DNA of 64,000 nucleotides from Escherichia phage vB_EcoM_phAPEC6, in the sequence record MK817115.1, one strand, 5' to 3'. Each line of letters opens with the position of its first letter. The first letter of the stretch is position 1. This document shows positions 27,747 through 58,264 of the stretch, piece after piece. The notes beneath the pieces were generated by a model that was not told the DNA's origin, made no database searches, and saw nothing but the letters and a program-made list of their open reading frames with translations. The translations under genes and the position numbers were made by a program.

Positions 27747-28127
27747 TCATTTAGTAAAACACGAATTATTACTGATAAGTTCATCAAGTACGTTTTGTAC
27801 TTCGATAGAATTAATATCAACTTTGTAATAATTATAGTTTTTAACTCTAAAATGTTCTTTTGATATATCAACTTTAAATTCAATAATATCAAGATTACCA
27901 ATAAAATCAGACTTATCAGTTCTTAAATCCAAAATACCTAATTCCGGTTTTTGTGGTTTACATAAAATCAAACCAAATTTATTTTCTTCAAATGCCTGAT
28001 TAAACATATCATAATAATCACTAATAACAAATCTAATATTATCAGTGCTTAACTTTCCTGATTTTCCTTTTTTATAAACAGAAACAATGTTTAGTTCAAA
28101 GGTTTTACCAAAGCGTGTGATTTTCAT
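27747..28127 (-). CDS. hypothetical protein
   Basis: 126 aa ORF. Confidence 0.4.
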   Translation of the reverse strand: MKITRFGKTFELNIVSVYKKGKSGKLSTDNIRFVISDYYDMFNQAFEENKFGLILCKPQKPELGILDLRTDKSDFIGNLDIIEFKVDISKEHFRVKNYNYYKVDINSIEVQNVLDELISNNSCFTK

Positions 28128-29095
28128 TTTGGGCTATAACCACTTTTAATTTTGGAAATTACTTTCTTCTCGAAGAACTTACGTGCTTCTTCAATAGTTT
28201 CGAATTCTTCACCATCAGTAGTACTGGTTTTACCAATAGCACCGTACTCAATAATTACTTCACACACTGGAGCATTCAATTCAATATTATAGAATTTGTT
28301 TGAAGAACCGTGAACATATTCCAAATGAACATTATCAGGAATGTTCTGTACATAATCATAGTTCTTGAAGATAATATCAATCATATTTTCTTCGCCGCGA
28401 TCAGGAAATAGTTCAGTATTATTCAGTACTAAACGCTGTGCAGCACGGAACATATCAAAATATTGTTCGCCTTTTTTCAGTTCTTTTGTATCAGAACAGA
28501 AATGACCATAATATTCTACATAATCATTCCAAGGATAAATTCCTTCATCAGCAGTTTCAAAAACGTAAGTTTCATCTTGTGGAACTTTAAAACCACGAGT
28601 TTTTGGATGAGAAATTAAGCACAGTGAAATATTATGACCGATATCTGAATCATCAGTAATACTACCACCAACCATATGAACAACATTTTTAATACGTTCA
28701 AAATCTACATCTTCAATTTCATGATACATTAAATGTTCTTCAATATTACTTACTAGTAATGAATTACCATTTCCGGCATCGAATTCAAAAATGAAAAGTT
28801 CTACACAATCTTCTTCTTTCATTTCAATAGTATCACTGAGTTTAATATACTCATTTTTTAATTGTTCAATATTTTCATGAGAACCAAAACTATAACGTGA
28901 ACTGATATAACTACTACCGTCCAACCATCCCATATCCCAAGGTTCTTCTGACATGTATTCTGAGCTATAGAAATGAGTCAAATCATCTCTCTGAGTACAA
29001 ACCGTAAGAGAGCGAACATTATTAAGACCTTGAACTTCAAGATTCAGTACTGTAGTATTGCCAATTTTTTGTTCAGAAATAATTTTAGTTTTCAT
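28124..29095 (-). CDS. hypothetical protein
   Basis: 323 aa ORF. Confidence 0.5.
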   Translation of the reverse strand: MKTKIISEQKIGNTTVLNLEVQGLNNVRSLTVCTQRDDLTHFYSSEYMSEEPWDMGWLDGSSYISSRYSFGSHENIEQLKNEYIKLSDTIEMKEEDCVELFIFEFDAGNGNSLLVSNIEEHLMYHEIEDVDFERIKNVVHMVGGSITDDSDIGHNISLCLISHPKTRGFKVPQDETYVFETADEGIYPWNDYVEYYGHFCSDTKELKKGEQYFDMFRAAQRLVLNNTELFPDRGEENMIDIIFKNYDYVQNIPDNVHLEYVHGSSNKFYNIELNAPVCEVIIEYGAIGKTSTTDGEEFETIEEARKFFEKKVISKIKSGYSPK

Positions 29096-33403: not shown

Positions 33404-33955
33404 CTATAGATAACTAATTAGTAAGTTTTCTTTTTGAACCAGATACTCCAATTCTTGTCTTGCTGTACCGATGAAGTTCTGTGTCATAAGATTATTATAT
33501 CCCGCTTCTCGATTTTGTCCCTTAGAATAACGAGAAATATGACATAAATTTACACCAGCAACTTCTGCACTTGCATGTTTAGCATTAGTGTATCCATCTC
33601 TAATGTGTTTCAACTCGTCATAGGTTACTTCATAGCTAAAACTGTGACTGTTTGCACCTGGGTAAATTTCAAAAGTTTTGAGTGGTCGAAGATGGGAAAC
33701 AAAAATATTGTAATCCATTTCTTCTTGAACTTCACGACGCAACGCATCTTCTAGTGAGATATCAGTACTTTCTACGGTTCCACCACATCCACCAAGAAGA
33801 CCATCCCATCGTAATTGCAGTAATACTAAATTTACTTCTGGTATATCATTCAACTCATAGTTTTTGTAAGGGTTGCATTTTCTTGCAAAGAAATAACAAA
33901 ATACAAAATTTGCACGTGTGCCATATTCACCAAAGGGAACTTCTTTAACACTCAT
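33404..33955 (-). CDS. Nudix hydrolase
   Basis: 183 aa; Nudix-box-like GGTVESTDISLEDALRREVQEEMDY (REUxEE core present, spacing and final Gly atypical). Confidence 0.55.
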   Translation of the reverse strand: MSVKEVPFGEYGTRANFVFCYFFARKCNPYKNYELNDIPEVNLVLLQLRWDGLLGGCGGTVESTDISLEDALRREVQEEMDYNIFVSHLRPLKTFEIYPGANSHSFSYEVTYDELKHIRDGYTNAKHASAEVAGVNLCHISRYSKGQNREAGYNNLMTQNFIGTARQELEYLVQKENLLISYL

Positions 33956-34710
33956 TTCATACGTTCCTTAATTATAGTCTCTAGATGCGGTATTGCTTTG
34001 GTTGCTGGCTTGATAACTTTTTCATTAAACAAAAAATCATTATCATTTTTACGAATGTTAACATTAACACTATAACATGGTAATGCTGCTGCTAATCTCG
34101 ACCATACCAGTACTGTATCGCTACTACCAATTACAATAACTGTATCATTTTCATTAAGAGATTTCAACACATTATTTCGTTCTTCGTAAATTGGTAAGCG
34201 AATACCATCAACATAACGATGATATTCTCCAATCATTACTACATTTGGTTTAGCAAAAACATCATGTTTTGGTATGTATGGTTCGTATCCGCAGTTAATA
34301 ACATTATAATCATCGGAATTGATACTATAATTTTCAATAACTTCGCACAAGTTTCCATGAAGTTTAAGCTCATGACCACCAATACGAGTATAAAGATCGT
34401 CCATGTTAGAAGTCATATGAAGGAAGCAATCACCATATTGATCTTCTAACGATTTTATAAAATAATGCATTGCATTCGGTTCGCATTGTCCCAATTTTAC
34501 ACGTAATGTATTATAGAAAGAATGAACAACATGATATTTTGTAGTTAAACTAGCAATGTTACATACATCATTAATTTTAAATGTATCCCACAAACCATCA
34601 TCAAATCGAAAAGGTTCCATACCACTTTCAACAGAAAGTCCTGCACCTGATATAATCAGTAATCGCTTTTTACCTTCATTGCTTATAAATTTTTCTGATA
34701 TCATATTCAA
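33952..34710 (-). CDS. Sir2-family NAD-dependent protein
   Basis: 252 aa; sirtuin motifs GAGLSVESGMEPFR, HG, GSS; no obvious Zn ribbon. Confidence 0.55.
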   Translation of the reverse strand: MNMISEKFISNEGKKRLLIISGAGLSVESGMEPFRFDDGLWDTFKINDVCNIASLTTKYHVVHSFYNTLRVKLGQCEPNAMHYFIKSLEDQYGDCFLHMTSNMDDLYTRIGGHELKLHGNLCEVIENYSINSDDYNVINCGYEPYIPKHDVFAKPNVVMIGEYHRYVDGIRLPIYEERNNVLKSLNENDTVIVIGSSDTVLVWSRLAAALPCYSVNVNIRKNDNDFLFNEKVIKPATKAIPHLETIIKERMK

Positions 34711-41305: not shown

Positions 41306-42097
41306 TTAAATTTCAAATACAAATTTAGGATTGTAATCAAAATTCTCACAAGCTCCACTGTATGATTCATAGCCTCGTGGATTACAAATGATACGTGTCT
41401 TACCAATGTGGTAGTCAAAACTACTATGAACATGACCATGAATCCAAACATCAGCACCCAAATCTTCAATGTACTGATCCATATCGGAACAGTAACAACC
41501 ATTCAGTGAATCATTTTTATATTTTGGTGAAACACTTTGATAACTTGGTGCGTGATGGGTAACCACGATTACCTTGAAATCATTATCATGCATAAAGCGA
41601 ACTGTGTCAATAGAATTTTTGATAAATTGTTTATCTTTGTGATGCATAAACTCAGTATCATCTGGTGTCAGTTTCTTACGCCAAGGCTCTGATGTTGTTC
41701 CATGACGGATATGTTTGTAATCGTTCATCTTCAGACGAGCATCAAACTTCGTCAAAGAATTACCTTTATCGAAGTCTGTCCACAGAGTACTACCAACAAG
41801 CAGTACTCCATCCAGCCATACAAATTTGTTTTGCAAAAAGATGAAATTAGGAATCTCATCTTGCATATCGGACAGTACTTTATGCGTTTTGTGGATATTG
41901 GAACCATAATATTCATGATTGCCAGGAACCAGTACTACATTCTTAAACTGCTTACATAGTGATTCTATACCAGTACGGTAACGACTGCGTTTAACTTCAT
42001 CGAAGTCCCCAGCAATAATCAGTACTGTATCACTGTAATCACCACTATGGAGGTAATCAGTACCACCGTGTACGTCAGACGTTACAACAAATTTCAT
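41306..42097 (-). CDS. calcineurin-like metallophosphoesterase
   Basis: 263 aa; motifs SDVHGG, GDFDE, GNHEY, VTHHAP, IHGHVH. Confidence 0.7.
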   Translation of the reverse strand: MKFVVTSDVHGGTDYLHSGDYSDTVLIIAGDFDEVKRSRYRTGIESLCKQFKNVVLVPGNHEYYGSNIHKTHKVLSDMQDEIPNFIFLQNKFVWLDGVLLVGSTLWTDFDKGNSLTKFDARLKMNDYKHIRHGTTSEPWRKKLTPDDTEFMHHKDKQFIKNSIDTVRFMHDNDFKVIVVTHHAPSYQSVSPKYKNDSLNGCYCSDMDQYIEDLGADVWIHGHVHSSFDYHIGKTRIICNPRGYESYSGACENFDYNPKFVFEI

Positions 42098-42116: not shown

Positions 42117-43535
42117 TTAGCCAAGTGATTCAATGATACTGTTTGAGAACACCTCAACAGCACTATCACGAATTTCTAAAATACGAGTATAGTCGTCACA
42201 AGTGTTTTTGTCAAATCTAAATTCAATAAACACTGGTAAGAACAGTGATGGCTCACCAGTACGCTTGTCGAATACAATGTCATTACACTCAACTGTAACC
42301 ACTTTACCAATAAGTTCTTGCATTCTTTCCCAAATGGTTTTAAATGTCCATTCAGCATCTTTCTCTTTGATACCAGTACCCACATTAACTTTCAATGAAC
42401 CACAAGCACTTTCCAGTTGTAAAGAACCTAGGCTTCCTTTACGTTTACCTTCACCTTCATTGAAACCAACAATACGCAAGTCTAGTTGCATTTTCAATTT
42501 CATTTTCAACTGCTTCGGAGAAGTGTGAGATTTCCAGATACCATCTTCACATTTCAGTACTGAACCCTCTTCACCTTCGTTCATTAGTTCACTATTGTAC
42601 TCAAATGCTTCTTTGATGTTTAGAACTTTACGGAATCCAACCATACGAACAAAATCACTATTGAGTTCGTTAATTGCATCTACTAAGATCTCGCGACGTT
42701 CTTTACGTTTTACATCCCATACACCTTCACAAAATGCATCATATGGAACAACATCCCATAGAACGAATACAGTACGCATTGCTTCATTCTGACTGATGCT
42801 ATCTTTACCAGCTTTCTGAATTATACCGTTGCCAGTAGTGCGTGGGAGAATGGTTTCCCCATCATTGTCCAGTACTACACCTTCCCCCATAAAGACCACA
42901 CCACTACTAAAACGTTCATCTTTACTTTGGATGATGTGAGCAAGACCTGCCATCTCACCATCACGACAACCCAGGAAGTCGTATAGTTTACCATTACGGG
43001 ATGTAGAAGTTAATGAACCATTAATAACAACGTGGTTCAAGTACTGACCATCCATTTTCACTTCTGATATAGCGTAACCATAATCTTTGAAGTTGATGTT
43101 CTTTGCAGTCTTTTTGTCAATCAAAGAACAACGCATATATGGTTCGTCTTTAATAAAGCCTTTACCAAATACATCATTGCAGTTCTTTTCTTGAATACCA
43201 CAATCAAGGTTTTTAGTAAGCATTTTACGGAGAACTTCCTGATCATCTTCAGATACAGAACCCAGTACTGAAGCAATGAAATCACGCCCCGCATTTCCTG
43301 TCACATCACGCTTGTAAATGCATTCTAGCTTATCAATTGCTTCATCTAACGTCATATGTTGATATACGTCATCAGCGGCAGGGAGCTTCTTATAGCCACT
43401 AACGATAGAAGGGTCTAGAGTATATTTCAGTACTTTTTGTAAAGTTACATTATCTTTATTTTGTTCAAGAATAGCTTTTTTGCCTAGTGTACTGCTAGTA
43501 TTTTTAATGCTTTCAAGAATTGCTAAAATGCTCAT
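42117..43535 (-). CDS. ATP-dependent DNA ligase (T4 gp30-like)
   Basis: 472 aa; adenylation motif EVKMDGQ (KxDG); N-terminus MSILAILESIKNTSSTLGKKAILEQNKDN resembles T4 DNA ligase N-terminus. Confidence 0.85.
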   Translation of the reverse strand: MSILAILESIKNTSSTLGKKAILEQNKDNVTLQKVLKYTLDPSIVSGYKKLPAADDVYQHMTLDEAIDKLECIYKRDVTGNAGRDFIASVLGSVSEDDQEVLRKMLTKNLDCGIQEKNCNDVFGKGFIKDEPYMRCSLIDKKTAKNINFKDYGYAISEVKMDGQYLNHVVINGSLTSTSRNGKLYDFLGCRDGEMAGLAHIIQSKDERFSSGVVFMGEGVVLDNDGETILPRTTGNGIIQKAGKDSISQNEAMRTVFVLWDVVPYDAFCEGVWDVKRKERREILVDAINELNSDFVRMVGFRKVLNIKEAFEYNSELMNEGEEGSVLKCEDGIWKSHTSPKQLKMKLKMQLDLRIVGFNEGEGKRKGSLGSLQLESACGSLKVNVGTGIKEKDAEWTFKTIWERMQELIGKVVTVECNDIVFDKRTGEPSLFLPVFIEFRFDKNTCDDYTRILEIRDSAVEVFSNSIIESLG

Positions 43536-43546
43536 TGTATATTCCT

Positions 43547-44749
43547 TTATAGATAATACTTTCCAATATAAAGTGGATTACTAATTGATAGTTGAACGTG
43601 ACACGGCTTATCTTGGTAGTAACGAGAACTTGATGTTTTGCGTTCATTTGGTGGGAAGAATGGGGAACGATAGCCATTCCATGTACTAAATGATGAGTGT
43701 TCATTAATATCAACATCCATTACCATAATCCCATTATCATCAATTTGAACTGGATATGCACTAAAGCGTTCAAATTTATCATTATAATGGATATTATAAT
43801 CTCCACTACGCCCATAATAACTACGCGTTGTATTATTACTTACACCAAAAAATACGCGATATGTTTGTTCATTATCTTTAGTCATAAATGGTACGTTCTC
43901 GTTGAAACGTCCATTATTCATAAGATCATCAACATTTATTTCTTCATATTTAATTTTTAGGTCTTTTGCTTTAAATGATTTATTGTGTACCAGTACTGGA
44001 ATGTTAGATTCACCTAATGGGTTATGTCTGTTTGTTCTATAGCTTTGCCAAAAATCATTAGCAAGTTTAATTTCTTCATCTGCCGTAGTCTTCTTATTCA
44101 AGAGTGCACGAGGTTCCAGATTGTAATTATCCAAACGTTGATTCAATGCATAAGTTCCACGAGTACTGTTGAAAAGTAAATGATAAACAGAACTTTTGTC
44201 GGGGTATGCAAATTCTTTAGTTTTCTTTATACAAATTGCATGAACTTTACCGCAGTAATAGTAATCTTCTTTGAGATAAGTGAAACCATCACCAACTTTA
44301 AGACCTGCTACAGTTTCTTTTTGTTGTTCTTTTTTATTTTCTTTTTCAACTAACTTAGCAAACGTTTTTGTTTTACCATTAATTAATTCTAAGTTATTGT
44401 TGAAAAACATTGGGTCTACAAAAACACCTTTGATTATATCGTTATTGATAATTAAATCATTCATGTTTTTGGCACTAATCATAAATTCAAATCCTTCTGG
44501 GTGACGGATCGTGAAATATGTTTCTCGTGCATGAGTTGTTAATTTATCAACTACACAAAATCCCGTAGTTGGAACGTTGTCAATATATAACGATGGAAGA
44601 TTGTTCTTCTTTGCCCAGTACTCTGCTCTCTCTTTCTTTGTTTCAAACGCTTTTGTATGTGATTTTGTTGCATCGATAATAAAACCATCAACTTGGTTGT
44701 GGTTTACATAGGAACGTGCAACAAATAACTTCTCTGGAAAATCCATCAA
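43547..44749 (-). CDS. hypothetical protein
   Basis: 400 aa ORF. Confidence 0.5.
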   Translation of the reverse strand: MMDFPEKLFVARSYVNHNQVDGFIIDATKSHTKAFETKKERAEYWAKKNNLPSLYIDNVPTTGFCVVDKLTTHARETYFTIRHPEGFEFMISAKNMNDLIINNDIIKGVFVDPMFFNNNLELINGKTKTFAKLVEKENKKEQQKETVAGLKVGDGFTYLKEDYYYCGKVHAICIKKTKEFAYPDKSSVYHLLFNSTRGTYALNQRLDNYNLEPRALLNKKTTADEEIKLANDFWQSYRTNRHNPLGESNIPVLVHNKSFKAKDLKIKYEEINVDDLMNNGRFNENVPFMTKDNEQTYRVFFGVSNNTTRSYYGRSGDYNIHYNDKFERFSAYPVQIDDNGIMVMDVDINEHSSFSTWNGYRSPFFPPNERKTSSSRYYQDKPCHVQLSISNPLYIGKYYL

Positions 44750-45165
44750 ATAGTCCTCATTGTGCTGATTGCTTTTAATGTGTCAAACAATGCACCATAT
44801 TTTACTTGCATTAGTTGATCACCAGCAGGAAGATTCATACGCATAACAGCCATGTCTTCAATCATTTCAGACGTACACAGTACTGCTACACAGGTAATAG
44901 CATCATTCAATCCAGCTTCATTGAATTTGGCAAACGGAACTTTTCCCTGTTTGCTAAGGTTGTTATAATAAGAATTTAACTTATCATGTCCACCAGCATT
45001 TAGTACTACAATAGTTTCGTGTTCATAGTACCATTCATCAATAATAGTACTGAAAGCAGTACCTTCATATTCTTTAATTAGTTTAACACCAGCATGGAAT
45101 GCTTGAATACCAGCTTGGACACCTTGGCAGTACATATTAGTTAAACAATACAATTTCATTTCCAT
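44746..45165 (-). CDS. hypothetical protein
   Basis: 139 aa ORF. Confidence 0.4.
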   Translation of the reverse strand: MEMKLYCLTNMYCQGVQAGIQAFHAGVKLIKEYEGTAFSTIIDEWYYEHETIVVLNAGGHDKLNSYYNNLSKQGKVPFAKFNEAGLNDAITCVAVLCTSEMIEDMAVMRMNLPAGDQLMQVKYGALFDTLKAISTMRTI

Positions 45166-45393: not shown

Positions 45394-45663
45394 TTATAAA
45401 AATGTTAAATCTTCAGTACTTAATTGTGATAATTTACCATCATATTCAATTTCAACATATACATTTTGGTCATAAACAGCAACTACACGTTTAATAACTC
45501 CAATCTTCACGACATTCTTTTTGTAGTTGAACTCAACTGAACAACCAATAAGTTTATTTGATAGAATCTCACGTATTTGATTAGCATGGTCTTTTAGGAT
45601 AGAATTAATAGATTTTTTCATAATATATCTATCATTCAAATATTTTTTAACTACATCATGCAT
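45394..45663 (-). CDS. small protein, dispersed paralog family
   Basis: 89 aa; motif LSNKLIGCSV like the family's DL..KY.G..V. Confidence 0.4.
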   Translation of the reverse strand: MHDVVKKYLNDRYIMKKSINSILKDHANQIREILSNKLIGCSVEFNYKKNVVKIGVIKRVVAVYDQNVYVEIEYDGKLSQLSTEDLTFL

Positions 45664-45668
45664 AATTA

Positions 45669-46427
45669 TTACCTTTTGAAACGATTGAATGAGTACTCAT
45701 CTTTTTCTTTACGTAAGTATCTCATTCCACCACTTTGTGGAGTAGCGAGAGTTAAGTCACCCGTCAAGAACTGACTATCAATCCAAATGCGATTACCGTA
45801 AATTAGTGGATCTGTAACTGCTGTATGTCCACTAAAGACACAATGCACTCCATCTAACTTAGGTGCATAATATGTATTATTAGTTCTACAATAATCGAAT
45901 GTTTTTCTATCCCACAAGCACTTATCAATTATATCAGCACTAAGTGATTTTGTCCCATTAACAAATCGTTCCCATGTTGTATATTCCAACGGAACTCCAG
46001 CATGAACTAACCCAATCTTCAATCCTCGGTGATTGATTTGGATAATCATAGGGAGATCCTTTAAGTACTGACGAAAGAATTGAATGCCTGTTCCTCCAAC
46101 TTCATCAAGGAATTTATCACCACCATTACTTATCCAACAATGATACCAATCTCGAAGTGTTTCCGAATCAACGCACATCATCTCATGATTACCCGCAATC
46201 ATGTAACGATTTTCTCCGAACAAAAATTCAAAAAGGAGCTTTGAATTTTGTTCTCCACGGTCGATAATATCACCTACACTGAAAACATAATCATTGTGTG
46301 TAATACCAAATTCTTTCACTGTAGCATCCCATAGTTTACCATTACCATGCAAATCACCTACAATGTATAAATCTTTATCATCAGGTACGGTTACTTCTAA
46401 GAAGTGTTTCATTATTACTCCAACCAT
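45669..46427 (-). CDS. PPP-family Ser/Thr protein phosphatase
   Basis: 252 aa; GDLHGN, GDIIDRG, GNHE motifs. Confidence 0.75.
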   Translation of the reverse strand: MVGVIMKHFLEVTVPDDKDLYIVGDLHGNGKLWDATVKEFGITHNDYVFSVGDIIDRGEQNSKLLFEFLFGENRYMIAGNHEMMCVDSETLRDWYHCWISNGGDKFLDEVGGTGIQFFRQYLKDLPMIIQINHRGLKIGLVHAGVPLEYTTWERFVNGTKSLSADIIDKCLWDRKTFDYCRTNNTYYAPKLDGVHCVFSGHTAVTDPLIYGNRIWIDSQFLTGDLTLATPQSGGMRYLRKEKDEYSFNRFKR

Positions 46428-48794: not shown

Positions 48795-49150
48795 AAAAAT
48801 CTCACAGATTTAATATTACTGGTTACATGATTTACCCAAGTGTTATCGAACTTGTAAACAATTGTATTAAGTGATTTATGAAAATTAACCTCGCACACTA
48901 AAGCCTTGGAACCATTGATTGTACAGACCGTGGATGGTAAGTTGTTTGCTAATATCTCTTTTTCATCTAAACATAGTGAACTAATACAATCATAATAGAG
49001 AGGTTCAAGAACTTTTTCAGTACTGAGAAAGTCAAAAGAAAGATCATCTATTAGTTTTATGTAATCGAATAAATTATGATAATATTCATTCATTGTAGAT
49101 CCTTTTAAATTTAGCATTATTAGAATATGTATATGAATGACCAAAATCAT
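48791..49150 (-). CDS. hypothetical protein
   Basis: 119 aa ORF; 3' end overlaps next ORF, start uncertain. Confidence 0.35.
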   Translation of the reverse strand: MILVIHIHILIMLNLKGSTMNEYYHNLFDYIKLIDDLSFDFLSTEKVLEPLYYDCISSLCLDEKEILANNLPSTVCTINGSKALVCEVNFHKSLNTIVYKFDNTWVNHVTSNIKSVRFL

Positions 49151-49337
49151 TTACACCATGTACATTTAGTACACCGTCACTGAAATAAATTCGATCAATA
49201 GTGAGTTCACGTTTATAATCCCAATCATCATACCAGCACAGAACACGAATGCCTTTGTACTTTGTAGTTAAATCATTTTCTAATATAGTCAAGTAATCAA
49301 TATGACTTTTGAATATCTCTAAGTCCTGCTCAAACAT
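49086..49337 (-). CDS. small protein, dispersed paralog family
   Basis: 83 aa; motif ENDLTTKYKGIRV. Confidence 0.4.
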   Translation of the reverse strand: MFEQDLEIFKSHIDYLTILENDLTTKYKGIRVLCWYDDWDYKRELTIDRIYFSDGVLNVHGVNDFGHSYTYSNNAKFKRIYNE

Positions 49338-49597
49338 TATTGTTCCTCGTATAATTCTATATCATCAACTCCAACTTGGCGAATTGCAGTACTTCTGATG
49401 AATGTATTTTTTTCAAACAAACATACTGTTAAACGTATTTCACACTTCAATGCACTGTAATAAATCATATCAATAACACCATATGTTTCATACATTTCTA
49501 CGTATACATTTCGACCTAAGTACTTTTCTTCTAAATCAGTAATTAGACTATTGATAAGATTACCTATCTGTGTTATATCTGTGTGAAATTTATCCAT
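49337..49597 (-). CDS. small protein, dispersed paralog family
   Basis: 86 aa; motif ITDLEEKYLGRNV. Confidence 0.4.
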   Translation of the reverse strand: MDKFHTDITQIGNLINSLITDLEEKYLGRNVYVEMYETYGVIDMIYYSALKCEIRLTVCLFEKNTFIRSTAIRQVGVDDIELYEEQ

Positions 49598-49842
49598 TAT
49601 AATAAACCTCTCACATAAAACATTGATGAAAATAGATAATCATCAGTACTTGTGTTTAGATGTTTAGAAAAGCTATATTTTTTATGTTTTTTTTCGTATA
49701 AAGACAATCTATAGAACATTTCTATATTTTCTAAGTATTCTTTTTGTAATAACATCTGTGTTTTTACATTCATTATAATATTCCTTAAAAGAAAAAGGGA
49801 CCAACATATGATCCCTTTTGTATTAGAAATTTCCTTCTGCAA
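49597..49842 (-). CDS. hypothetical protein
   Basis: 81 aa ORF overlapping the pnk 3' region; uncertain. Confidence 0.3.
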   Translation of the reverse strand: MQKEISNTKGIICWSLFLLRNIIMNVKTQMLLQKEYLENIEMFYRLSLYEKKHKKYSFSKHLNTSTDDYLFSSMFYVRGLL

Positions 49843-50755
49843 CTTGAAAAACTTTCAAGCCAAGTAGCTTACGCCACATGAATACGACTTGTGTTCGGTC
49901 ATCATATACCTTTTTAACATCGTAATGATCAACCACATTTTTCATGTACAGGTCGAATTTTACAACATCATCAGGACGTTTATCATCGATATCTCGCATA
50001 AACAATGCATCGTAAGGAACACCCCAATTCTTAAGCCACTGTTCGGTATCCGCACGACACCCTTCAGTACGCCCACTCATGACGATAATCTTGCGTTTAT
50101 GAAAAACTGCTTCAGCGATAATAGACAAAATAACTTCTTCATCAGGTGTATCCTGAAGAACAGTACTTTCATCGTAAGGATTACGACCCCATTTATGAGC
50201 AAGAGTTCCATCGATATCAACGATGATAGCAGCTTCGCGTGAATTACCATAGTAACCAATGTGTAATGCTTTACTATAATAGTACGTATCTGCCATTTTG
50301 TCAATGATATCATCTGGTACTGAACGCTCACGCTGGAGGTTATATTTCTTACAAAGTTTTACGAACTCTTTAATCTTAAAGAATTCATGAACATCTGCAC
50401 CACGGTCTTCATTAGGTACAAAATCATCATAGAAGTTCTTTTCTTTGTAATCATAACCATTATCTGTAGCCCATACTTTCCAGAGATTACGGAAATGTGG
50501 TTTAAGGTTTGTATCGGATACTATGATGTTCCAACCATTCTCTGCTGCTGAATTTGCTGCACTGAACTGTAAATTATCTACGTACTGCTCATTAGCATCG
50601 TTGAATTTGTAAGCATCATGTGACCCAGCCATAGATTCACGAATATCATCACGGTTGATGTTGATAGTCTTGGATTTGGCTTTTTTAATCTCTTGCACTG
50701 CCCATGTAGTTTTACCACACCCAGGCAATCCAACTGTTAGTGTGATAGTTGGCAT
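49823..50755 (-). CDS. pseT: polynucleotide 5'-kinase / 3'-phosphatase (T4 PseT-like)
   Basis: 310 aa; P-loop GLPGCGKTT; HAD phosphatase motif DIDGTL; C-terminus DDRTQVVFMWRKLLGLKVFQVAEGNF matches T4 Pnk C-terminus. Confidence 0.85.
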   Translation of the reverse strand: MPTITLTVGLPGCGKTTWAVQEIKKAKSKTININRDDIRESMAGSHDAYKFNDANEQYVDNLQFSAANSAAENGWNIIVSDTNLKPHFRNLWKVWATDNGYDYKEKNFYDDFVPNEDRGADVHEFFKIKEFVKLCKKYNLQRERSVPDDIIDKMADTYYYSKALHIGYYGNSREAAIIVDIDGTLAHKWGRNPYDESTVLQDTPDEEVILSIIAEAVFHKRKIIVMSGRTEGCRADTEQWLKNWGVPYDALFMRDIDDKRPDDVVKFDLYMKNVVDHYDVKKVYDDRTQVVFMWRKLLGLKVFQVAEGNF

Positions 50756-50758
50756 CCT

Positions 50759-51088
50759 TTAATCCTCTAAAAATTTAACATGCTCTATATTATGATAGGT
50801 GAGCCATTCCTGTGGTGTTCCCTTTCGTATTAAAACACCAATATACGCAATACCATTAATTAGACCATTACTATCAGTATTCACATCAACTTTCACAATC
50901 TCGGAATCGTACCAGTGTTTAAATGTGTAATCCCAACATCTGACTTTCTTCCCAATAAGATTGCTCTTGTATTTGTCAATCATTTCATCGACGATAGTTT
51001 GTACTGAATTTTTAATTTCAGCTTCTACTGACTTTATATATAGTAAATTACTTTGTGCATTGTTTATCATTATATTTCCCAACTCCAA
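50759..51088 (-). CDS. small protein, dispersed paralog family
   Basis: 109 aa; motif KYKSNLIGKKV. Confidence 0.4.
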   Translation of the reverse strand: MELGNIMINNAQSNLLYIKSVEAEIKNSVQTIVDEMIDKYKSNLIGKKVRCWDYTFKHWYDSEIVKVDVNTDSNGLINGIAYIGVLIRKGTPQEWLTYHNIEHVKFLED

Positions 51089-51284
51089 ATCGCTTGGAGA
51101 TTTTCACAAGTACAGATTCATCACAACGAATACTAGCAGTATCATTGGATGAACTGTACTTTAATGGGGTCCACTGTAATTGAGATTCTTCTAGGAACTT
51201 GATACATCTGAAATAATCTTTCAAGGAAAGAAATTTAACTACTGACATATCCTGAACAATACTATGCTGAACTTCAACTTTCAT
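51048..51284 (-). CDS. hypothetical protein
   Basis: 78 aa ORF. Confidence 0.35.
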   Translation of the reverse strand: MKVEVQHSIVQDMSVVKFLSLKDYFRCIKFLEESQLQWTPLKYSSSNDTASIRCDESVLVKISKRFGVGKYNDKQCTK

Positions 51285-51293
51285 ATGAACTCC

Positions 51294-51551
51294 TTATAGT
51301 GGGTCAAATTTATTTTCACGTTTCGATGTATAGCGAGTTACATCATGTATTCTCGGCTTAACACCTTTTGGTTTCCTTTTCTTCTTGTATTCAGTACTAC
51401 TACATCCGAAGGTATTCTCGATTCGTTTCTTACTTATCTTCACACCTTTCATTGAGCGTTTGTGCTGTAATTCATCGATTTCTTCTTGTATTTTCCTGAA
51501 CTCAGTCGGAGAAAGGGAACCGTCATTTTTATACTTAGGTTTAGCCATCAC
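51294..51551 (-). CDS. small basic protein
   Basis: 85 aa, Lys/Arg-rich. Confidence 0.4.
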   Translation of the reverse strand: MMAKPKYKNDGSLSPTEFRKIQEEIDELQHKRSMKGVKISKKRIENTFGCSSTEYKKKRKPKGVKPRIHDVTRYTSKRENKFDPL

Positions 51552-51578
51552 TTCTCCTTGTGCTTAGGCTAGATAGTA

Positions 51579-52721
51579 CTAAAAATCCTTTAGTACAATT
51601 TTCATGTATTTTATAAGAGTCTCTTTGTAATCAACTTTCTTATTGTTATACATTGCAAAGGCCAAGCCCTGACGATTCAGTTCATTAGTTAAACACTCCT
51701 GAACCTTCATTGCGAATTCCTTTCGCTCCAAGTGCTTGTGTTCCTTGACGAAGCTTTCTACTTCATCTTGTAATGCATTATAGCACGAAAATACCAATTG
51801 TTCCATTCTTAATATCTTTTGCATAGCATATTCATCAGTACTGAACAATTGTTTTAAATCATCACTTGAACCATTTAATACTGCTTCATATAAATGAGAA
51901 TCAATAATAATACTATCTTTTGTAAGATGTAATGAACTGTACCAGTCAGTCTTTATTTTACACATTGTCCCATTATTTAGGATGCACACAAAACCCTCAA
52001 TATCAAGCATTTTATGAACTTCCTCCACGCTTTCACGGAAGGTATTTCGTACCGGAAAAGTGTGATGAATATCTTTTCCAGTCATATTAGTACTGTACTG
52101 TGCAAGACATGGAAACTTATCACGTAGTGCTTTACCACATAGCAACTCACCACTCACACGATGACGAACGTTCAGTACAAACAGTTGTTCTACCTGATAT
52201 GGTAATACAATTCGGTACTCTGGGCTTGTATACTCCATATTAACTGTGTAACCTAAACGTTCCGCTTCGTCGATGTACTGATACAAATTCTGGTTCTCGT
52301 TAATAAGTCGAGTACTGTTAATCGCATGGTCAGAATACAATGCAGTATGTGATTTACAACGAATCTCACCATCATTATCACGGTAAGTACTGATAATCGA
52401 ACCATCCAACTTAGGCATCACTACCGCAATGTCATCGCATGTGGTGTTAGCAGGGAACATTGTAGCAGGATTCTCGTAAGCATTGAAGAACTTTTTCATT
52501 GTACGTGCTGCACAACGTATCATTTCACCTTCTTCATCAATTTCCCACATAGAGCCACGGGTTTCCAACGCATTTGGTTGCATGAAATCAGTGTATGATG
52601 CTAGACGATAACTGAATACACGATACGTGCCACCAGCAGGACTTTTATGATCCACATAAAAGAATGCATCGTTTGTATTACATAAGTGCATTAAATCTTC
52701 ATATATTTGCAAAAGGGTCAT
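51579..52721 (-). CDS. rnlA: RNA ligase 1 (T4 Rnl1/gp63-like)
   Basis: 380 aa; adenylation motif KLDGS; YRVFSYRLASY, KIKTDWYSSLH and GSSDDLKQLFSTDEY align with T4 Rnl1 segments. Confidence 0.85.
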   Translation of the reverse strand: MTLLQIYEDLMHLCNTNDAFFYVDHKSPAGGTYRVFSYRLASYTDFMQPNALETRGSMWEIDEEGEMIRCAARTMKKFFNAYENPATMFPANTTCDDIAVVMPKLDGSIISTYRDNDGEIRCKSHTALYSDHAINSTRLINENQNLYQYIDEAERLGYTVNMEYTSPEYRIVLPYQVEQLFVLNVRHRVSGELLCGKALRDKFPCLAQYSTNMTGKDIHHTFPVRNTFRESVEEVHKMLDIEGFVCILNNGTMCKIKTDWYSSLHLTKDSIIIDSHLYEAVLNGSSDDLKQLFSTDEYAMQKILRMEQLVFSCYNALQDEVESFVKEHKHLERKEFAMKVQECLTNELNRQGLAFAMYNNKKVDYKETLIKYMKIVLKDF

Positions 52722-53026
52722 TTTATTACCTCTATATCTACATCAGTTCCATAATATGATATTAATCCATCATCAGATTCACACTGAATAGACAACTCAG
52801 ATTCATAGTATGTTACTTTATTCACTGTTAGTACTTGTTCTTCAATTACTCCAGAAAAATAATTCATCTCACGTACACGAACTTTAGTTCCTTTAGGTAG
52901 TTCATCTGAGATTTTTCGAACAAGATCATAAGCAGCCTGTTCAAGTGTGTACAGTAATTGTAATCTATCTTGAATATTCATATTATTTCCACCAACTGGT
53001 ATCACGTCCATTAGACAAAGATTCAT
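52718..53026 (-). CDS. small protein, dispersed paralog family
   Basis: 102 aa; motif ISDELPKGTKV. Confidence 0.4.
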   Translation of the reverse strand: MNLCLMDVIPVGGNNMNIQDRLQLLYTLEQAAYDLVRKISDELPKGTKVRVREMNYFSGVIEEQVLTVNKVTYYESELSIQCESDDGLISYYGTDVDIEVIK

Positions 53027-53672
53027 TGTACTGATGCCTAAAATTAGTTTTTGGATTATTGTTCATAGTACTAATAAAATCAAATTTAACATTCTCTTGA
53101 ATATATTTTTTAACACTATCTTTAAATTTAATAGTACTGAAGTCTAAATCTAGATGTTCATACAATACCGGATGACAAAACTCATGTGTACGCAACGCTG
53201 GCATGGTATCCTTAATGTATTGCACAGTGTTAATCATTGCATTGTATTCCGGCATAGCACGCATCATCATTAGCTGAAAGTGTTCTTCCTCTGACATTGA
53301 CTCATCCAAATCAATAACGACTTCATCATTTTTAGAGTCATAAACTTTAATGGTACTCTTGGTTGGATCAAGCATAGCCCACTCTGGATACAGGCATGTT
53401 TTCCAAAAAGGATTATTGCACTGAAACATACTAATGAGATTTTGATCTTTATCAAAAATAGCAAATCCAAGATCCGAACTTGGTTGTACTTCACATACAC
53501 AAATATCGTAAGACGAGTCTTCAGTACTGAGTGAACCAACTACATTTGATATATGTGAATATGGAGTTTCTCTTGACTCCAACTGAAATGTACTTTCAAT
53601 TCGATTGATTTGTGGATGTAATGTAATTACACCCCTTAGTACATATAAAATTCTATCTAAATCTTTAATCAA
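52983..53672 (-). CDS. hypothetical protein
   Basis: 229 aa ORF. Confidence 0.45.
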   Translation of the reverse strand: MIKDLDRILYVLRGVITLHPQINRIESTFQLESRETPYSHISNVVGSLSTEDSSYDICVCEVQPSSDLGFAIFDKDQNLISMFQCNNPFWKTCLYPEWAMLDPTKSTIKVYDSKNDEVVIDLDESMSEEEHFQLMMMRAMPEYNAMINTVQYIKDTMPALRTHEFCHPVLYEHLDLDFSTIKFKDSVKKYIQENVKFDFISTMNNNPKTNFRHQYNESLSNGRDTSWWK

Positions 53673-54247
53673 AATTCTATCCCCGTATCAGTTAATTTCG
53701 TTCCGTCCATGTACTTAACAGTTATTTCAATGCGTCGATCAGTACTCAATTTTTGAAGATCATTGTAGTACAATTTAAATTCTTCAAAGAACTCAAGTGG
53801 TGGAATATCGTATAAAGTACTAATCTGGAAGTGCTCAGGTAATCCAAATTCCAATATATCAATCTTAGGCATAAGTCCATCGGCTGCTGCACCTTCTGGA
53901 GTACTGCTATCTGCTACATAAAACATAGAATTACCATGACGCTGGATAACGAATATGCAATCATCTTCACTTACATAAATCATATTTCCAAGGTATGGAT
54001 CGTTATCACACCAATTATCATGGACGAGTTGTTCAACTTGAAGTAAATCTTTTATAATTCCCTGACCACTATCGTCAACTAGAATATGTAAACCAGAACA
54101 ATCTTTGCTCAACCAGCGGTATCTTGCATCACATCCTGATTCCATAAATGGATATTTTGAAAAATCCATATCAGTACCATTATAAAACCAATCGTACCAC
54201 TCATTACGCATACTAATCAGCTTAGTACTTAATTCTAATACATTCAT
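53669..54247 (-). CDS. hypothetical protein
   Basis: 192 aa ORF. Confidence 0.45.
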   Translation of the reverse strand: MNVLELSTKLISMRNEWYDWFYNGTDMDFSKYPFMESGCDARYRWLSKDCSGLHILVDDSGQGIIKDLLQVEQLVHDNWCDNDPYLGNMIYVSEDDCIFVIQRHGNSMFYVADSSTPEGAAADGLMPKIDILEFGLPEHFQISTLYDIPPLEFFEEFKLYYNDLQKLSTDRRIEITVKYMDGTKLTDTGIEF

Positions 54248-54893: not shown

Positions 54894-55631
54894 TTAGAAA
54901 TATATCATACCCATCAATTCAGAATCGGCGGGGCGAGTATAACCTTGCTTCTTAACTTTAAAATAGAATGATTCATGCTCTTCTAAATTATAACGTTTTT
55001 TCAAGCAACGAGTGTATGTCTGACAATTTGGGTGAACCCATTCATAAATGTGAATGCCATTTTCGTCATAACCATTTATACTACAACGATTTCCTTCATG
55101 CTTCATAAAGTTTTTACTTTTTTCAGTAAATTCTTTCACTGTAGTTGTATATGGAGATTTGTATTCAAAAGGAACTTCAGTCATACGAAAATAATAGTAT
55201 TCTTCGTCTTCATCATATCCCAAGAGCACTGTGTTAGTTTCACGTACATTGTAATGATTCTTACTTTTTAATTCATTTTCGTATATATCTTTCAGTACTT
55301 CTGCAAAAACTTCATCGCTTGATGCATTAGGATTAGATACACCTGATACTCGGCGTTCAATAATAAAATCAGTGAATTTGCGGTCTTCGGCAATATCTTC
55401 GTTCATATAAAGACTAACAAACTTATCCTTATATGTCTTTACACTATATTGCTTACTTTGTACTTCACTATAAACATCTGCTAACATATTCTCCTGACCA
55501 CACTGCACACCACTTACAGAATAAGCACATGCATGTTCAGCCATTACTGATGTTAACATTTGGAAATTTGCCATGTTTAATTCATTCGCCATCTCTGTAG
55601 CGAAACGGATACGGTCAAGCATTTCACACAC
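54894..55631 (-). CDS. hypothetical protein
   Basis: 245 aa ORF. Confidence 0.45.
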   Translation of the reverse strand: MCEMLDRIRFATEMANELNMANFQMLTSVMAEHACAYSVSGVQCGQENMLADVYSEVQSKQYSVKTYKDKFVSLYMNEDIAEDRKFTDFIIERRVSGVSNPNASSDEVFAEVLKDIYENELKSKNHYNVRETNTVLLGYDEDEEYYYFRMTEVPFEYKSPYTTTVKEFTEKSKNFMKHEGNRCSINGYDENGIHIYEWVHPNCQTYTRCLKKRYNLEEHESFYFKVKKQGYTRPADSELMGMIYF

Positions 55632-56666: not shown

Positions 56667-56862
56667 CATGAACACGCTCACAATTAAGGCAATAAATGCA
56701 CTCAATGTCAGGTCGCCATGATTTATCAAAATCTTTGTGCTGTTCTTCGGTGTATTCTGCATCATCATTAATAGGGAAGAAATCACCAGCACCAGTCGCC
56801 CAGTCTGAATCTAAACGGAAACGAGCTAATTGAGTACTGTTACAATATGGACATTTATTCAA
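56662..56862 (-). CDS. zinc-ribbon protein
   Basis: 66 aa; CPYCNS...CIYCLNC. Confidence 0.4.
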   Translation of the reverse strand: MNKCPYCNSTQLARFRLDSDWATGAGDFFPINDDAEYTEEQHKDFDKSWRPDIECIYCLNCERVHD

Positions 56863-57139
56863 AATTTATTCCTTCTAACTGATATACGTTTAATGAAAAT
56901 GACCCATTATTATTATCGCATCTGAAACACAGTGTTAAAGAACCATTAAAACTAACAACATCAGTACATATACATTTTTCACCATTGGATATGATAGATT
57001 TTCCTATATATAAATCTCTTACTATAGTACGGTAATGTTGCCATAAAAAATAATACACACTTTCATAGTACTCATCTTTTACATATGACAAGTATAAGAA
57101 TTTATAAAATACTTGTATTTCCTTTAAGTTGTTTTTCAT
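56855..57139 (-). CDS. small protein, tandem paralog array
   Basis: 94 aa; VRDLYIGKSI. Confidence 0.4.
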   Translation of the reverse strand: MKNNLKEIQVFYKFLYLSYVKDEYYESVYYFLWQHYRTIVRDLYIGKSIISNGEKCICTDVVSFNGSLTLCFRCDNNNGSFSLNVYQLEGINFE

Positions 57140-57413
57140 TCTCCAACTCCAGTAAATTTACACCAATCCAATCAACATCACTATCAGTACTTAATTCCAA
57201 TCGTAGCTTACCGCTATGACTAACAATATCGCGGAATTTGTATATTTTATTATCACGAACTATACACAAATCATGGTAATATTCATGTAATTCATCCAAA
57301 AACTTTATCCATACCGAACGATAGATTTCACCGTAGAGATATTCTCCAGCATCAACCGTAGCGTATTGGATATACAAAAATTTGTATGTGAATTGTATAT
57401 CATTTAATAACAT
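57102..57413 (-). CDS. small protein, tandem paralog array
   Basis: 103 aa; N-terminus LNDIQFTYKFLY shared with 57424..57735. Confidence 0.45.
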   Translation of the reverse strand: MLLNDIQFTYKFLYIQYATVDAGEYLYGEIYRSVWIKFLDELHEYYHDLCIVRDNKIYKFRDIVSHSGKLRLELSTDSDVDWIGVNLLELENEKQLKGNTSIL

Positions 57414-57423
57414 ATGTAACCTC

Positions 57424-57735
57424 TTATAAATTCACCAACTTCACAACTTTAATCTCGATAAATCCCCTATCGGTTATTTCAAGAAATTCAACATGGATAA
57501 TCCCATTGTATGATTTAACTCCAGAGAACTCGAATATATCATTTCCGTCGATAAAAGTACTGTAATTCTTTTTTATATATTCACCTACTGAATCTAAGTA
57601 CTCAATATATAAATCAATAAATGGTTGTTCTTTGTATGGGTTATGTGAACCTATTTTGTTACTAACAAGGTATACATCATACAAATCATATAGGATCTTA
57701 TAAGTGAATTGTATATCATTTAAATTTAATCCCAA
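57424..57735 (-). CDS. small protein, tandem paralog array
   Basis: 103 aa; N-terminus LNDIQFTYKILY. Confidence 0.45.
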   Translation of the reverse strand: MGLNLNDIQFTYKILYDLYDVYLVSNKIGSHNPYKEQPFIDLYIEYLDSVGEYIKKNYSTFIDGNDIFEFSGVKSYNGIIHVEFLEITDRGFIEIKVVKLVNL

Positions 57736-57992
57736 GGGAATATCTCCAACGGAATACTGGTAAATCCAAAATCAGTGTAGTACTGAACCTCAACTTTACC
57801 ATCACGTCTAATGATTATATCAGAAAATTCTGCATGGTCATCACCAATAATAACAGTACTGAATTTTTTTTTAATCTTACCACGAATTGTATGAATCATT
57901 TCAGTGCATGTGTCTTCTAGACTAGGGCTATCATTGTCGTGTGCTAAATCTCGAATAATCTTGTATGTTAGTAGGAAATCTTTATAATTCAT
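57726..57992 (-). CDS. small protein, tandem paralog array
   Basis: 88 aa; MNYKDFLLTYK. Confidence 0.4.
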   Translation of the reverse strand: MNYKDFLLTYKIIRDLAHDNDSPSLEDTCTEMIHTIRGKIKKKFSTVIIGDDHAEFSDIIIRRDGKVEVQYYTDFGFTSIPLEIFPWD

Positions 57993-58264
57993 ATGTCCAC
58001 CAAATCTATACTATATCTTTCATTAGTATTACTATCTATAAATGATAGTACTAATTTACCACCAAAACTATTAACTTGTTCTATCTTCTGTTTTTTACCA
58101 CGAATGATTATCTCACTATTAACAAAATATTCACGTATCATTATTAAGTGATTAATCCAGATAGTATGAGTGAATGTGTTTTCTCGTATTGTATTGAGAT
58201 ATCTTCCATTGTGATGTAAATCAAACAAAACACTGTATGTATATTGTAGAACTTTATAATTCAT
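57989..58264 (-). CDS. small protein, tandem paralog array
   Basis: 91 aa; MNYKVLQYTY. Confidence 0.4.
   Translation of the reverse strand: MNYKVLQYTYSVLFDLHHNGRYLNTIRENTFTHTIWINHLIMIREYFVNSEIIIRGKKQKIEQVNSFGGKLVLSFIDSNTNERYSIDLVDI

Follow-up and report, generated by a model that had tools for sequence, protein, structure and literature searches.

A predicted T4-type RNA repair gene pair, an Rnl1-like ligase and a PseT-like kinase/phosphatase, in an Asteriusvirus jumbo coliphage

The window analysed here, a stretch of 64,000 nucleotides from Escherichia phage vB_EcoM_phAPEC6 (MK817115.1), shares 99.9% identity with Escherichia phage SHEFM2K and 98.3% with PBECO4. Its source is, judging from these matches, a PBECO4/121Q-type jumbo coliphage of the genus Asteriusvirus (PBECO4-like giant E. 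coli phages). Two ORFs on the minus strand, found exactly where a preliminary description of this DNA had placed them, encode a homolog of the T4 RnlA-family ATP-dependent RNA ligase 1 (rnlA; 51579..52721, 380 aa) and a homolog of T4 PseT, the bifunctional polynucleotide 5'-kinase/3'-phosphatase (Pnkp or Pnk; 49823..50755, 310 aa). Both were assigned by homology and domain content. The 824 bp that separate them had been described as containing five small ORFs; we found three, all on the minus strand (50759-51088, 51048-51284 and 51294-51551), and three are likewise present in the RefSeq record of PBECO4 (gp126-128). Four are found in some sister strains and five in RaK2.

The ligase comprises an N-terminal Rnl1-specific subdomain, a nucleotidyltransferase domain and an Rnl1 C-terminal helical domain. 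Its likeness to T4 Rnl1, noted earlier from the KLDGS motif and several matching segments, was substantiated by 35.7% identity in a pairwise alignment, by matches to the T4 Rnl1 structures 2c5u/5tt6 (E ~1e-56), phrog_562 (3.5e-109), Pfam RNA_lig_T4_1 (PF09511; 58.7 bits for a cutoff of 28.3) and T4_Rnl1_C (PF20819; aa 268-379, E 6.6e-17, 62.4 bits for a cutoff of 27), and by a score of 293.2 bits with the NCBIfam equivalog TIGR02308, whose cutoff is 242.25. On the minus strand, motif I (KLDGS, aa 104-108) lies at 52398-52412, motif Ia (CKSHT) at 52344-52358, motif III at 52227-52241, motif IV (IEGFV) at 51987-52001 and motif V (KIK) at 51945-51962. Lys104-Leu-Asp-Gly, Glu163, Glu242-Gly243 and Lys255/Lys257 correspond to T4 Lys99, Glu159, Glu227-Gly228 and Lys240/242 and are invariant in 120 homologs, while Arg55, Lys77 and Phe79 of the N-terminal subdomain correspond to T4 Arg54, Lys75 and Phe77, whose roles are described in PMC6379707. 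Altogether, the equivalents of T4 Tyr37, Arg54, Lys75, Phe77, Lys99, Asp101, Gly102, Ser103, Glu159, Arg182, Glu227, Gly228, Lys240, Lys242, Tyr246 and Asp272/273 are kept, and nearly all of the retained catalytic residues are invariant across the alignment of 120 family members. From its sequence, the protein is assigned to the Rnl1 clade and not to a DNA ligase clade; a separate ATP-dependent DNA ligase is encoded at 42117-43535.

The kinase/phosphatase carries the P-loop, the DxDGT motif and the T4 Pnk-like C-terminus that had been reported for it: the P-loop is GLPGCGKT (aa 9-16; 50708-50731), the phosphatase motif is DIDGT (aa 180-184; 50204-50218), and the C-terminal ...FQVAEGNF parallels ...WQVASGDF of T4 Pnk. 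The catalytic Asp/Arg motif NRDDIR (50639-50656), the lid arginine motif NLQRERS (50321-50341) and further phosphatase residues (49889-50188) are found on the same, minus strand. Identity with T4 Pnk reaches 34.3%, and the protein matched the T4 Pnk structure 1ltq (E 1.3e-41), Pfam HAD_PNKP (PF25109; 1.6e-43, 148.7 bits for a cutoff of 27.6), AAA_33 and phrog_505 (4.9e-96). For both enzymes, such scores lie well outside what chance would produce. The kinase residues Lys15, Asp36, Arg39 and lid Arg142 are equivalent to T4 Lys15, Asp35, Arg38 and Arg126; among 122 homologs, the positions of T4 Lys15, Asp35 and Arg126 are invariant and that of Arg38 is kept in 121. With regard to the phosphatase, the equivalents of T4 Asp165, Asp167, Arg176, Arg213, Asp254, Lys258 and Asp278 are retained and invariant in the same 122 homologs; both residues of the T4 Asp277/278 pair are kept, and the full Pnk catalytic set is invariant or nearly so. 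An apparent loss of the lid arginine, with T4 Arg126 opposite a glutamine in pairwise and three-sequence alignments, was found to be an artefact: in the 122-sequence alignment the arginine is invariant and T4 carries a one-residue insertion.

According to these alignments, the essential catalytic residues of both enzymes, including the motif I lysine and the HAD aspartates, are all retained, with the motif Ia lysine of the ligase as the sole exception. The position of T4 Lys119 is occupied by His125, preceded by a conserved Ser124, so that the window ligase has Ser-His where T4 Rnl1 has Ser-Lys. Wang, Ho and Shuman reportedly found in 2003 that Lys119 of T4 Rnl1 is essential and specific to RNA adenylylation (step 2). 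In the 120 family members, the column contains histidine (47), glutamine (18) or asparagine (14) in 79 sequences, which make up the Rak2-like clade, and lysine in the other 41; step-2 chemistry may therefore differ in the Rak2-like clade. The neighbouring lysine (T4 Lys117) is invariant, and the Lys117 and Ser118 positions are both invariant or nearly so in the same alignment. [quoted passage not shown] In the window ligase, either His125 or the neighbouring lysine may provide this contact.

The first gene downstream of rnlA (51294..51551, minus strand; phrog_15306) encodes a conserved and very basic 85-aa protein (84 aa from the ATG at 51548; pI 10.1, 24 K+R), and 15 of the 16 other Rak2-like loci have a homolog located between the two enzyme genes. 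It has no match in Pfam or NCBIfam, and an exhaustive HMMER search of 1.84 billion proteins returned six representative clusters, all restricted to the clade. The second gene (51048..51284, minus strand) encodes a conserved 78-aa protein with a predicted beta-beta-alpha-beta-beta-alpha (ferredoxin/ACT-like) fold; 18 of its positions are invariant, many of them polar, and its mean conservation (67%) exceeds that of Rnl1 (59%) and Pnk (58%). Both proteins are kept in 15-16 of the 16 other Rak2-like loci, always between Rnl1 and Pnk. The third ORF, directly upstream of pnk (50759..51088, minus strand; 103 aa from the ATG at 51070), is specific to Asteriusvirus, with no counterpart in the 16 non-Asteriusvirus loci. 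Its low-confidence structural model (pLDDT 67) comprises a long helix and a 5-strand beta unit. HMM comparison ties it to 45394-45663 and, via RaK2 ORF463, to 52718-53026, as a small paralog group; the latter ORF (minus strand), whose stop codon overlaps the rnlA start (ATGA), is the positional equivalent of RaK2 ORF463. The suggestion that the intervening ORFs include members of an expanded small-protein family is thus correct for 50759-51088, while the other two constitute conserved families of their own. Membership of any of these three ORFs in the tandem five-gene family at 56855-58264 was rejected by BLAST, iterative HMM and hhalign searches, and homology to T4 alc or pseT.1-3 was likewise rejected, as BLASTP and profile-profile hhalign comparisons found none. 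Elsewhere in the 41-61.5 kb region, 25 of 27 other small ORFs are without homolog in the 16 other Rak2-like loci, and most small ORFs around the pair appear to be lineage-specific.

In T4, in RaK2, in all 17 Rak2-like loci and in 48 of 80 Rnl1 loci overall, rnlA is followed on the same strand by small ORFs and then by pseT. From rnlA to pnk, the genes of the window are tightly spaced and have Shine-Dalgarno sequences, and no terminator-like site was found between the two enzyme genes. An intrinsic-terminator-like hairpin (49793..49819, minus strand), with an 11-bp stem followed by a U-run, is located 3 nt past the pnk stop codon; its RNA fold has an energy of -14.4 kcal/mol (z = -3.26), and transcription from rnlA through pnk likely stops there. 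Scanning for sigma-70-like promoters was uninformative, with fewer sites in the window than in shuffled controls. The co-oriented rnlA, pnk and two conserved small genes are probably co-transcribed up to this hairpin. As the two small families are kept between Rnl1 and Pnk while most of their neighbours are lineage-specific, a four-gene core that ends at the terminator can be delineated. The earlier proposal that the intervening ORFs are part of the same functional neighbourhood gains some support for these two from their conserved position across the clade, on which that association is based.

For the pair, the analysis shows homology, domain architecture, retained catalytic residues, linkage and existing annotation. 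The proposal of a T4-type Rnl1 and PseT-like RNA repair pair agrees with the homology to the solved T4 enzymes, the scores above curated thresholds, the catalytic residues and the same-strand T4 gene order. Very probably, the two genes represent a system for healing and sealing RNA ends in a jumbo coliphage of the genus Asteriusvirus, and are counterparts, orthologous in kind, of pseT and rnlA in T4. In such a system, the HAD domain of Pnkp (nucleophile Asp180 and acid-base Asp182, equivalent to T4 Asp165 and Asp167) would remove a cyclic or 3' phosphate, and its P-loop kinase domain (Lys15, Asp36, Arg39, lid Arg142) would phosphorylate the 5'-OH. T4-type Pnkp is a homotetramer that has 5'-kinase, 3'-phosphatase and 2',3'-cyclic phosphodiesterase activities. 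The resulting 3'-OH and 5'-PO4 ends would be sealed by Rnl1 through adenylylation of Lys104, transfer of AMP to the 5'-PO4 and formation of the phosphodiester, and the C-terminal helical domain of Rnl1 would steer the ligase to broken tRNA loops. The T4 tRNA-repair pathway and the roles of its catalytic residues are described in PMC3592404, PMC6379707 and PMC1807946. We infer that both enzymes would be active, with tRNA as a presumed in vivo substrate and a possible role in counter-defence. By analogy with T4 biology (PMC6379707, PMC7824862), the pair may restore tRNA that PrrC or another anticodon nuclease of the host has cut. Points that weigh against this reading are His125 at motif Ia and the finding that the window contains neither tRNA genes nor an identifiable anticodon-nuclease inhibitor.

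An extension of this explanation, tentative and in our view unlikely, is a four-protein RNA repair module in which the 85-aa and 78-aa proteins would assist Rnl1 and Pnkp as accessory subunits. Conceivable roles for the two are recruitment of substrate by RNA binding together with regulation or scaffolding, or else inhibition of the host nuclease. The sandwiched position of both genes among small ORFs that are mostly lineage-specific points in this direction, as do the conservation of the 78-aa protein above that of the enzymes, its many polar invariant positions, the pI of the 85-aa protein, and the tight spacing and Shine-Dalgarno sequences of a unit with no internal terminator and one past pnk. 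A further-reaching form, which we consider distinctly doubtful, is a conserved Rak2-like cassette Rnl1/85-aa/78-aa/Pnkp. Here the two small proteins would serve the enzymes as dedicated partners (for example, one recruiting RNA or tRNA and the other regulating, or an inhibitor of a host tRNA nuclease), and the non-canonical motif Ia (Lys-Ser-His/Gln/Asn) would reflect a partner-dependent ligase.

T4 Rnl1 also acts in tail-fibre attachment, independently of its ligase activity. In SHEFM2K and PBECO4, the kinase gene is annotated 'polynucleotide kinase' and the ligase gene 'RNA ligase and tail fiber protein attachment catalyst'. This dual name and the loss of the motif Ia lysine in the Rak2-like clade could indicate that the ligase persists chiefly because of a function in structure or assembly, comparable with that of T4 gp63 in tail-fibre attachment, and that Pnkp mainly processes DNA ends or nucleotides, tRNA repair not being the selected function. 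We regard this as very unlikely: the invariance of all other adenylyltransferase residues in the 120 homologs speaks for selection on catalysis, the ligase has the C-terminal domain that specifies tRNA, tight linkage to Pnkp is kept across distant clades, and the phage carries its separate DNA ligase. It is hardly credible that the change of the canonical motif Ia Ser-Lys or Ser-Arg to Ser-His disabled or re-purposed the ligase, for example for self-adenylylation without transfer of AMP to RNA, given that the substitution is clade-wide with every other catalytic position invariant, a pattern of tolerated variation and not of decay, that the adjacent lysine (T4 Lys117) and Ser118 could make the phosphate contact, and that histidine, glutamine and asparagine can all hydrogen-bond phosphate.

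The RNA end-healing and end-sealing reading was already available for this group, as both enzyme genes already carry names in the GenBank and RefSeq records of Asteriusvirus; PMC7824862 reviews how jumbo phages repair RNA with Rnl1 and PNK-HAD, and rnlA of Rak2-like phages is mentioned in PMC5259590. The value of the present finding for the pair is confirmatory. With intact heal-and-seal genes, the phage is probably equipped against tRNA-cleaving host defences, which bears on the choice of hosts in phage therapy. In addition, the two proteins conserved between Rnl1 and Pnk across the whole Rak2-like clade could seed experiments, and structure-function studies of Rnl1-type ligases could draw on the loss of the motif Ia lysine throughout this clade.

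Among known systems, T4 RNA ligase 1 (gp63, RnlA; PDB 2C5U, 5TT6) has the same three-part architecture as the window ligase and shares with it motifs I, III, IV and V and the Arg54/Lys75/Phe77 triad, whereas the window ligase has an insertion of ~17 aa ahead of motif IV and a shorter C-terminus. T4 Pnkp (PseT; PDB 1LTQ) and the window Pnkp both combine an N-terminal P-loop kinase with a C-terminal DxDxT phosphatase. The window protein has every residue for which an essential role in T4 Pnk is reported, and the C-terminal motif is nearly identical, but the window protein has a clade-specific insertion of ~20 aa in the kinase domain (roughly aa 109-130) and replaces T4 Arg122 with tyrosine and Ser16 with threonine. 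In both phages rnlA is upstream of pseT on one strand; in contrast to T4, the window has neither denA upstream nor alc downstream. The fungal and plant tRNA ligase Trl1 (Rnl6 clade) resembles the window ligase in its Rnl1-like N-terminal subdomain and adenylyltransferase core, with SKHS as motif Ia. However, Trl1 combines three functions in one polypeptide, has another C-domain, requires a 2'-PO4 and functions in tRNA splicing. Bacterial Pnkp1 (e.g. PDB 4XRP) is a full-length homolog of the window Pnk (E 2e-31), and the bacterial Pnkp1-Rnl-Hen1 and Pnkp/Hen1 systems have in common with the window pair a heal-then-seal logic (PMC4411300). The Hen1 methyltransferase of these systems is missing from the window, and the ligases differ in type, bacterial Rnl there and Rnl1 in the window. 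Among the Rak2-like jumbo phages, Klebsiella phage RaK2, GAP32, CBB, fHe-Yen9-04 and PBECO4 (gp129, gp125) have direct, already annotated orthologs of both rnlA and pseT with 55-100% identity. Their loci contain 3 to 5 intervening ORFs, among them a middle small-protein family found in 15 of 17 Rak2-like loci and missing from the window, whereas the ORF directly before pnk is an Asteriusvirus feature of the window. These phages share with the window both the gene order and the two small-protein families sandwiched between the enzymes.

For the T4-type RNA repair pair of the window, comprising the ligase Rnl1 and the kinase-phosphatase Pnk, we observed homology, architecture, retention of catalytic residues and gene linkage. 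The 380-aa ligase (rnlA, 51579-52721, minus strand) matches the Pfam families RNA_lig_T4_1 and T4_Rnl1_C, phrog_562 (3.5e-109) and the crystal structures of T4 Rnl1 (about 1e-56). It scores 293 bits with the NCBIfam equivalog model for T4 RnlA, whose curated cutoff is 242, and is 35.7% identical to the T4 protein. The 310-aa Pnk (49823-50755, minus strand) combines a P-loop kinase domain with a HAD_PNKP match (1.6e-43), matches phrog_505 (4.9e-96) and T4 Pnk 1LTQ (1.3e-41), is 34.3% identical to the T4 protein and, along its whole length, also matches a bacterial Pnkp1 structure. The preliminary description had placed both ORFs exactly, and the motifs that it had read are real: KLDGS at aa 104-108 of the ligase and, in Pnk, the P-loop GLPGCGKT at aa 9-16, the DxDGT motif as DIDGT at aa 180-184, and a T4-like C-terminus, in which FQVAEGNF parallels T4 WQVASGDF. 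The alternative it had raised, that 51579-52721 is a DNA ligase, was rejected, given the Rnl1-type matches and a distinct ATP-dependent DNA ligase at 42117-43535.

Over the 4.7 kb at 49000-53700, identity is 99.9% to Escherichia phage SHEFM2K and 98.3% to PBECO4, a member of Asteriusvirus, which belongs to the Rak2-like jumbo myoviruses (~350 kb). Each of the 44 window ORFs that reach 150 aa is encoded on the minus strand. The whole window has a G+C content of ~33%, a GC skew that stays negative from end to end, and no tRNA genes.

Catalytic residues were audited in two steps, first in alignments with the T4 protein and then in deeper ones with 120 Rnl1 or 122 Pnk homologs. Rnl1 keeps the equivalents of T4 Tyr37, Arg54, Lys75, Phe77, Lys99 (the motif I lysine), Asp101, Gly102, Ser103, Glu159, Arg182, Glu227, Gly228, Lys240, Lys242, Tyr246 and Asp272/273, nearly all of them invariant among the 120 homologs. 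Pnk has the kinase residues Lys15, Asp35 and Arg38, the HAD aspartates Asp165 and Asp167, and Arg176, Arg213, Asp254, Lys258 and Asp277/278 (T4 numbering; roles described in PMC3592404). Pairwise alignments paired the lid residue Arg126 with glutamine; this substitution was rejected, as the arginine is invariant in the 122-homolog alignment, where a one-residue insertion in T4 Pnk explains the apparent pairing. T4 Arg122 is a tyrosine in the window and in RaK2, and Rak2-like Pnks carry a ~20-residue insertion in the kinase domain (window aa ~109-130), which the homologs of T4 and bacteria lack.

The only exception in the ligase is motif Ia, where T4 Ser118-Lys119 corresponds to Ser124-His125. 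[quoted passage not shown] Among the 120 homologs, the column holds Lys in T4-like phages (n=41) and His (n=47), Gln (n=18) or Asn (n=14) in the Rak2-like clade; Ser-His is no private lesion. The position of T4 Lys117, two residues before the basic residue of the motif, is Lys in 120/120 sequences. T4 Lys119 itself was reportedly found by Wang, Ho and Shuman in 2003 to be essential, specifically for the RNA-adenylylation step. Because all other catalytic positions are invariant, we read the histidine as a probably tolerated, clade-specific variant rather than as decay.

Three small minus-strand ORFs separate the enzymes, at 51294-51551 (85 aa), 51048-51284 (78 aa) and 50759-51088 (103-109 aa), rather than the five described previously; RefSeq PBECO4 annotates the same three (gp126-128). 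The 78-aa family lies between the enzymes in 16/16 other Rak2-like loci and the 85-aa family in 15/16, and only 2 of the 27 remaining small ORFs (<135 aa) in 41-61.5 kb have any homolog in these loci. Mean conservation is 67% for the 78-aa protein, versus 59% for Rnl1 and 58% for Pnk. From rnlA to pnk the genes stand close together and carry Shine-Dalgarno sequences, no terminator-like site was found between rnlA and pnk, and a strong hairpin with a U-run stands 3 nt past the pnk stop codon (-14.4 kcal/mol, z = -3.3). This sandwiched conservation, spacing and terminator placement therefore suggest that rnlA, the 85-aa and 78-aa genes and pnk form a conserved, co-transcribed four-gene core.

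The cassette position between 51048-51284 and 50759-51088 is a hotspot for small-gene insertion and loss. Some sister Asteriusvirus strains have an extra 84-aa ORF there (~+273 bp; for example, 9652-9906 of locus L005), and most other Rak2-like phages have a different middle family (fam5) in the cassette; the window has neither. Of the expanded small-protein families in the window, the clearest is Asteriusvirus-specific and consists of five tandem paralogous genes at 56855-58264 (minus strand, 88-103 aa each), which match the family HMM with E-values of 1e-33 to 1e-39. A second, more diverged family comprises 45394-45663, 50759-51088 and 52718-53026 (all minus strand), its members bridged by RaK2 ORF463; its predicted structure has a long helix at the N-terminus and is rich in beta structure in the C-terminal half. 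One copy immediately precedes rnlA, and another immediately precedes pnk.

The 410-aa RlaP-like protein at 12278-13510 (minus strand; phrog_388; PF10127 RlaP, 8.4e-16), named only 'nucleotidyltransferase' in PBECO4, is probably a third component of RNA repair, ~38 kb from the pair. PF10127 denotes an 'RNA ligase-associating Pol-beta' nucleotidyltransferase, and RlaP enzymes add 1-2 nucleotides at damaged RNA 3' ends (PMC12776372). The 139-aa protein at 44746-45165 (minus strand), conserved in 9/16 related loci, matches peptidyl-tRNA hydrolase PTH2 marginally (25.1 bits, cutoff 23); encoded near the repair genes, it could have another role connected with tRNA. A 245-aa protein encoded ~2 kb upstream of rnlA (54894-55631, minus strand, phrog_16105) matches nothing in Pfam or the PDB and stands out by its conservation (mean 67% identity, 14/16 Rak2-like loci). 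Two calcineurin-like metallophosphoesterases, of a type sometimes suggested to act in jumbo phages as phosphatases on RNA ends (PMC7824862), are encoded at 45669-46427 (annotated NinI-like, kept downstream of pnk in 13/16 related loci) and 41306-42097, both on the minus strand. A protein with a C-terminal WGR domain and an adjacent Nudix hydrolase/Sir2-like pair, the latter identified from PBECO4 annotation, lie at 28124-29095 and 33404-34710 (both minus strand); the pair are candidates for NAD/ADP-ribose-related conflict functions.

Both genes of the repair pair are already annotated in many records; the observation is correct, if ordinary. The rnlA of Rak2-like phages has been discussed as a possible tRNA-repair enzyme (PMC5259590), and a 2021 survey of jumbo phages by Iyer et al. 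covered Rnl1, PNK-HAD and RlaP (PMC7824862). The proposed four-gene core and the motif Ia variant add modestly to this; we met no description of either in the literature consulted on the two enzymes.

In 48 of 80 IMG/VR loci that encode Rnl1 homologs, Pnk lies 0.5-4.2 kb downstream on the same strand; ~30 have no Pnk in the sequence at hand, a few of these being truncated loci. The 48 include 17/17 Rak2-like loci, with a gap of 0.7-1.2 kb. The genes between rnlA and pseT are not homologous between the Rak2-like and T4 lineages: no hhalign probability of the intervening genes against T4 alc and pseT.1-3 exceeds 1.4%. In RaK2, rnlA is followed by five ORFs and then pseT, and T4 has the order and strand of the window (rnlA-alc-pseT.3-pseT.2-pseT.1-pseT). 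The T4 paradigm is the best-supported reading for Rnl1 and Pnk, whose enzymatic activity, substrate and counter-defence role may be expected to follow those of T4.
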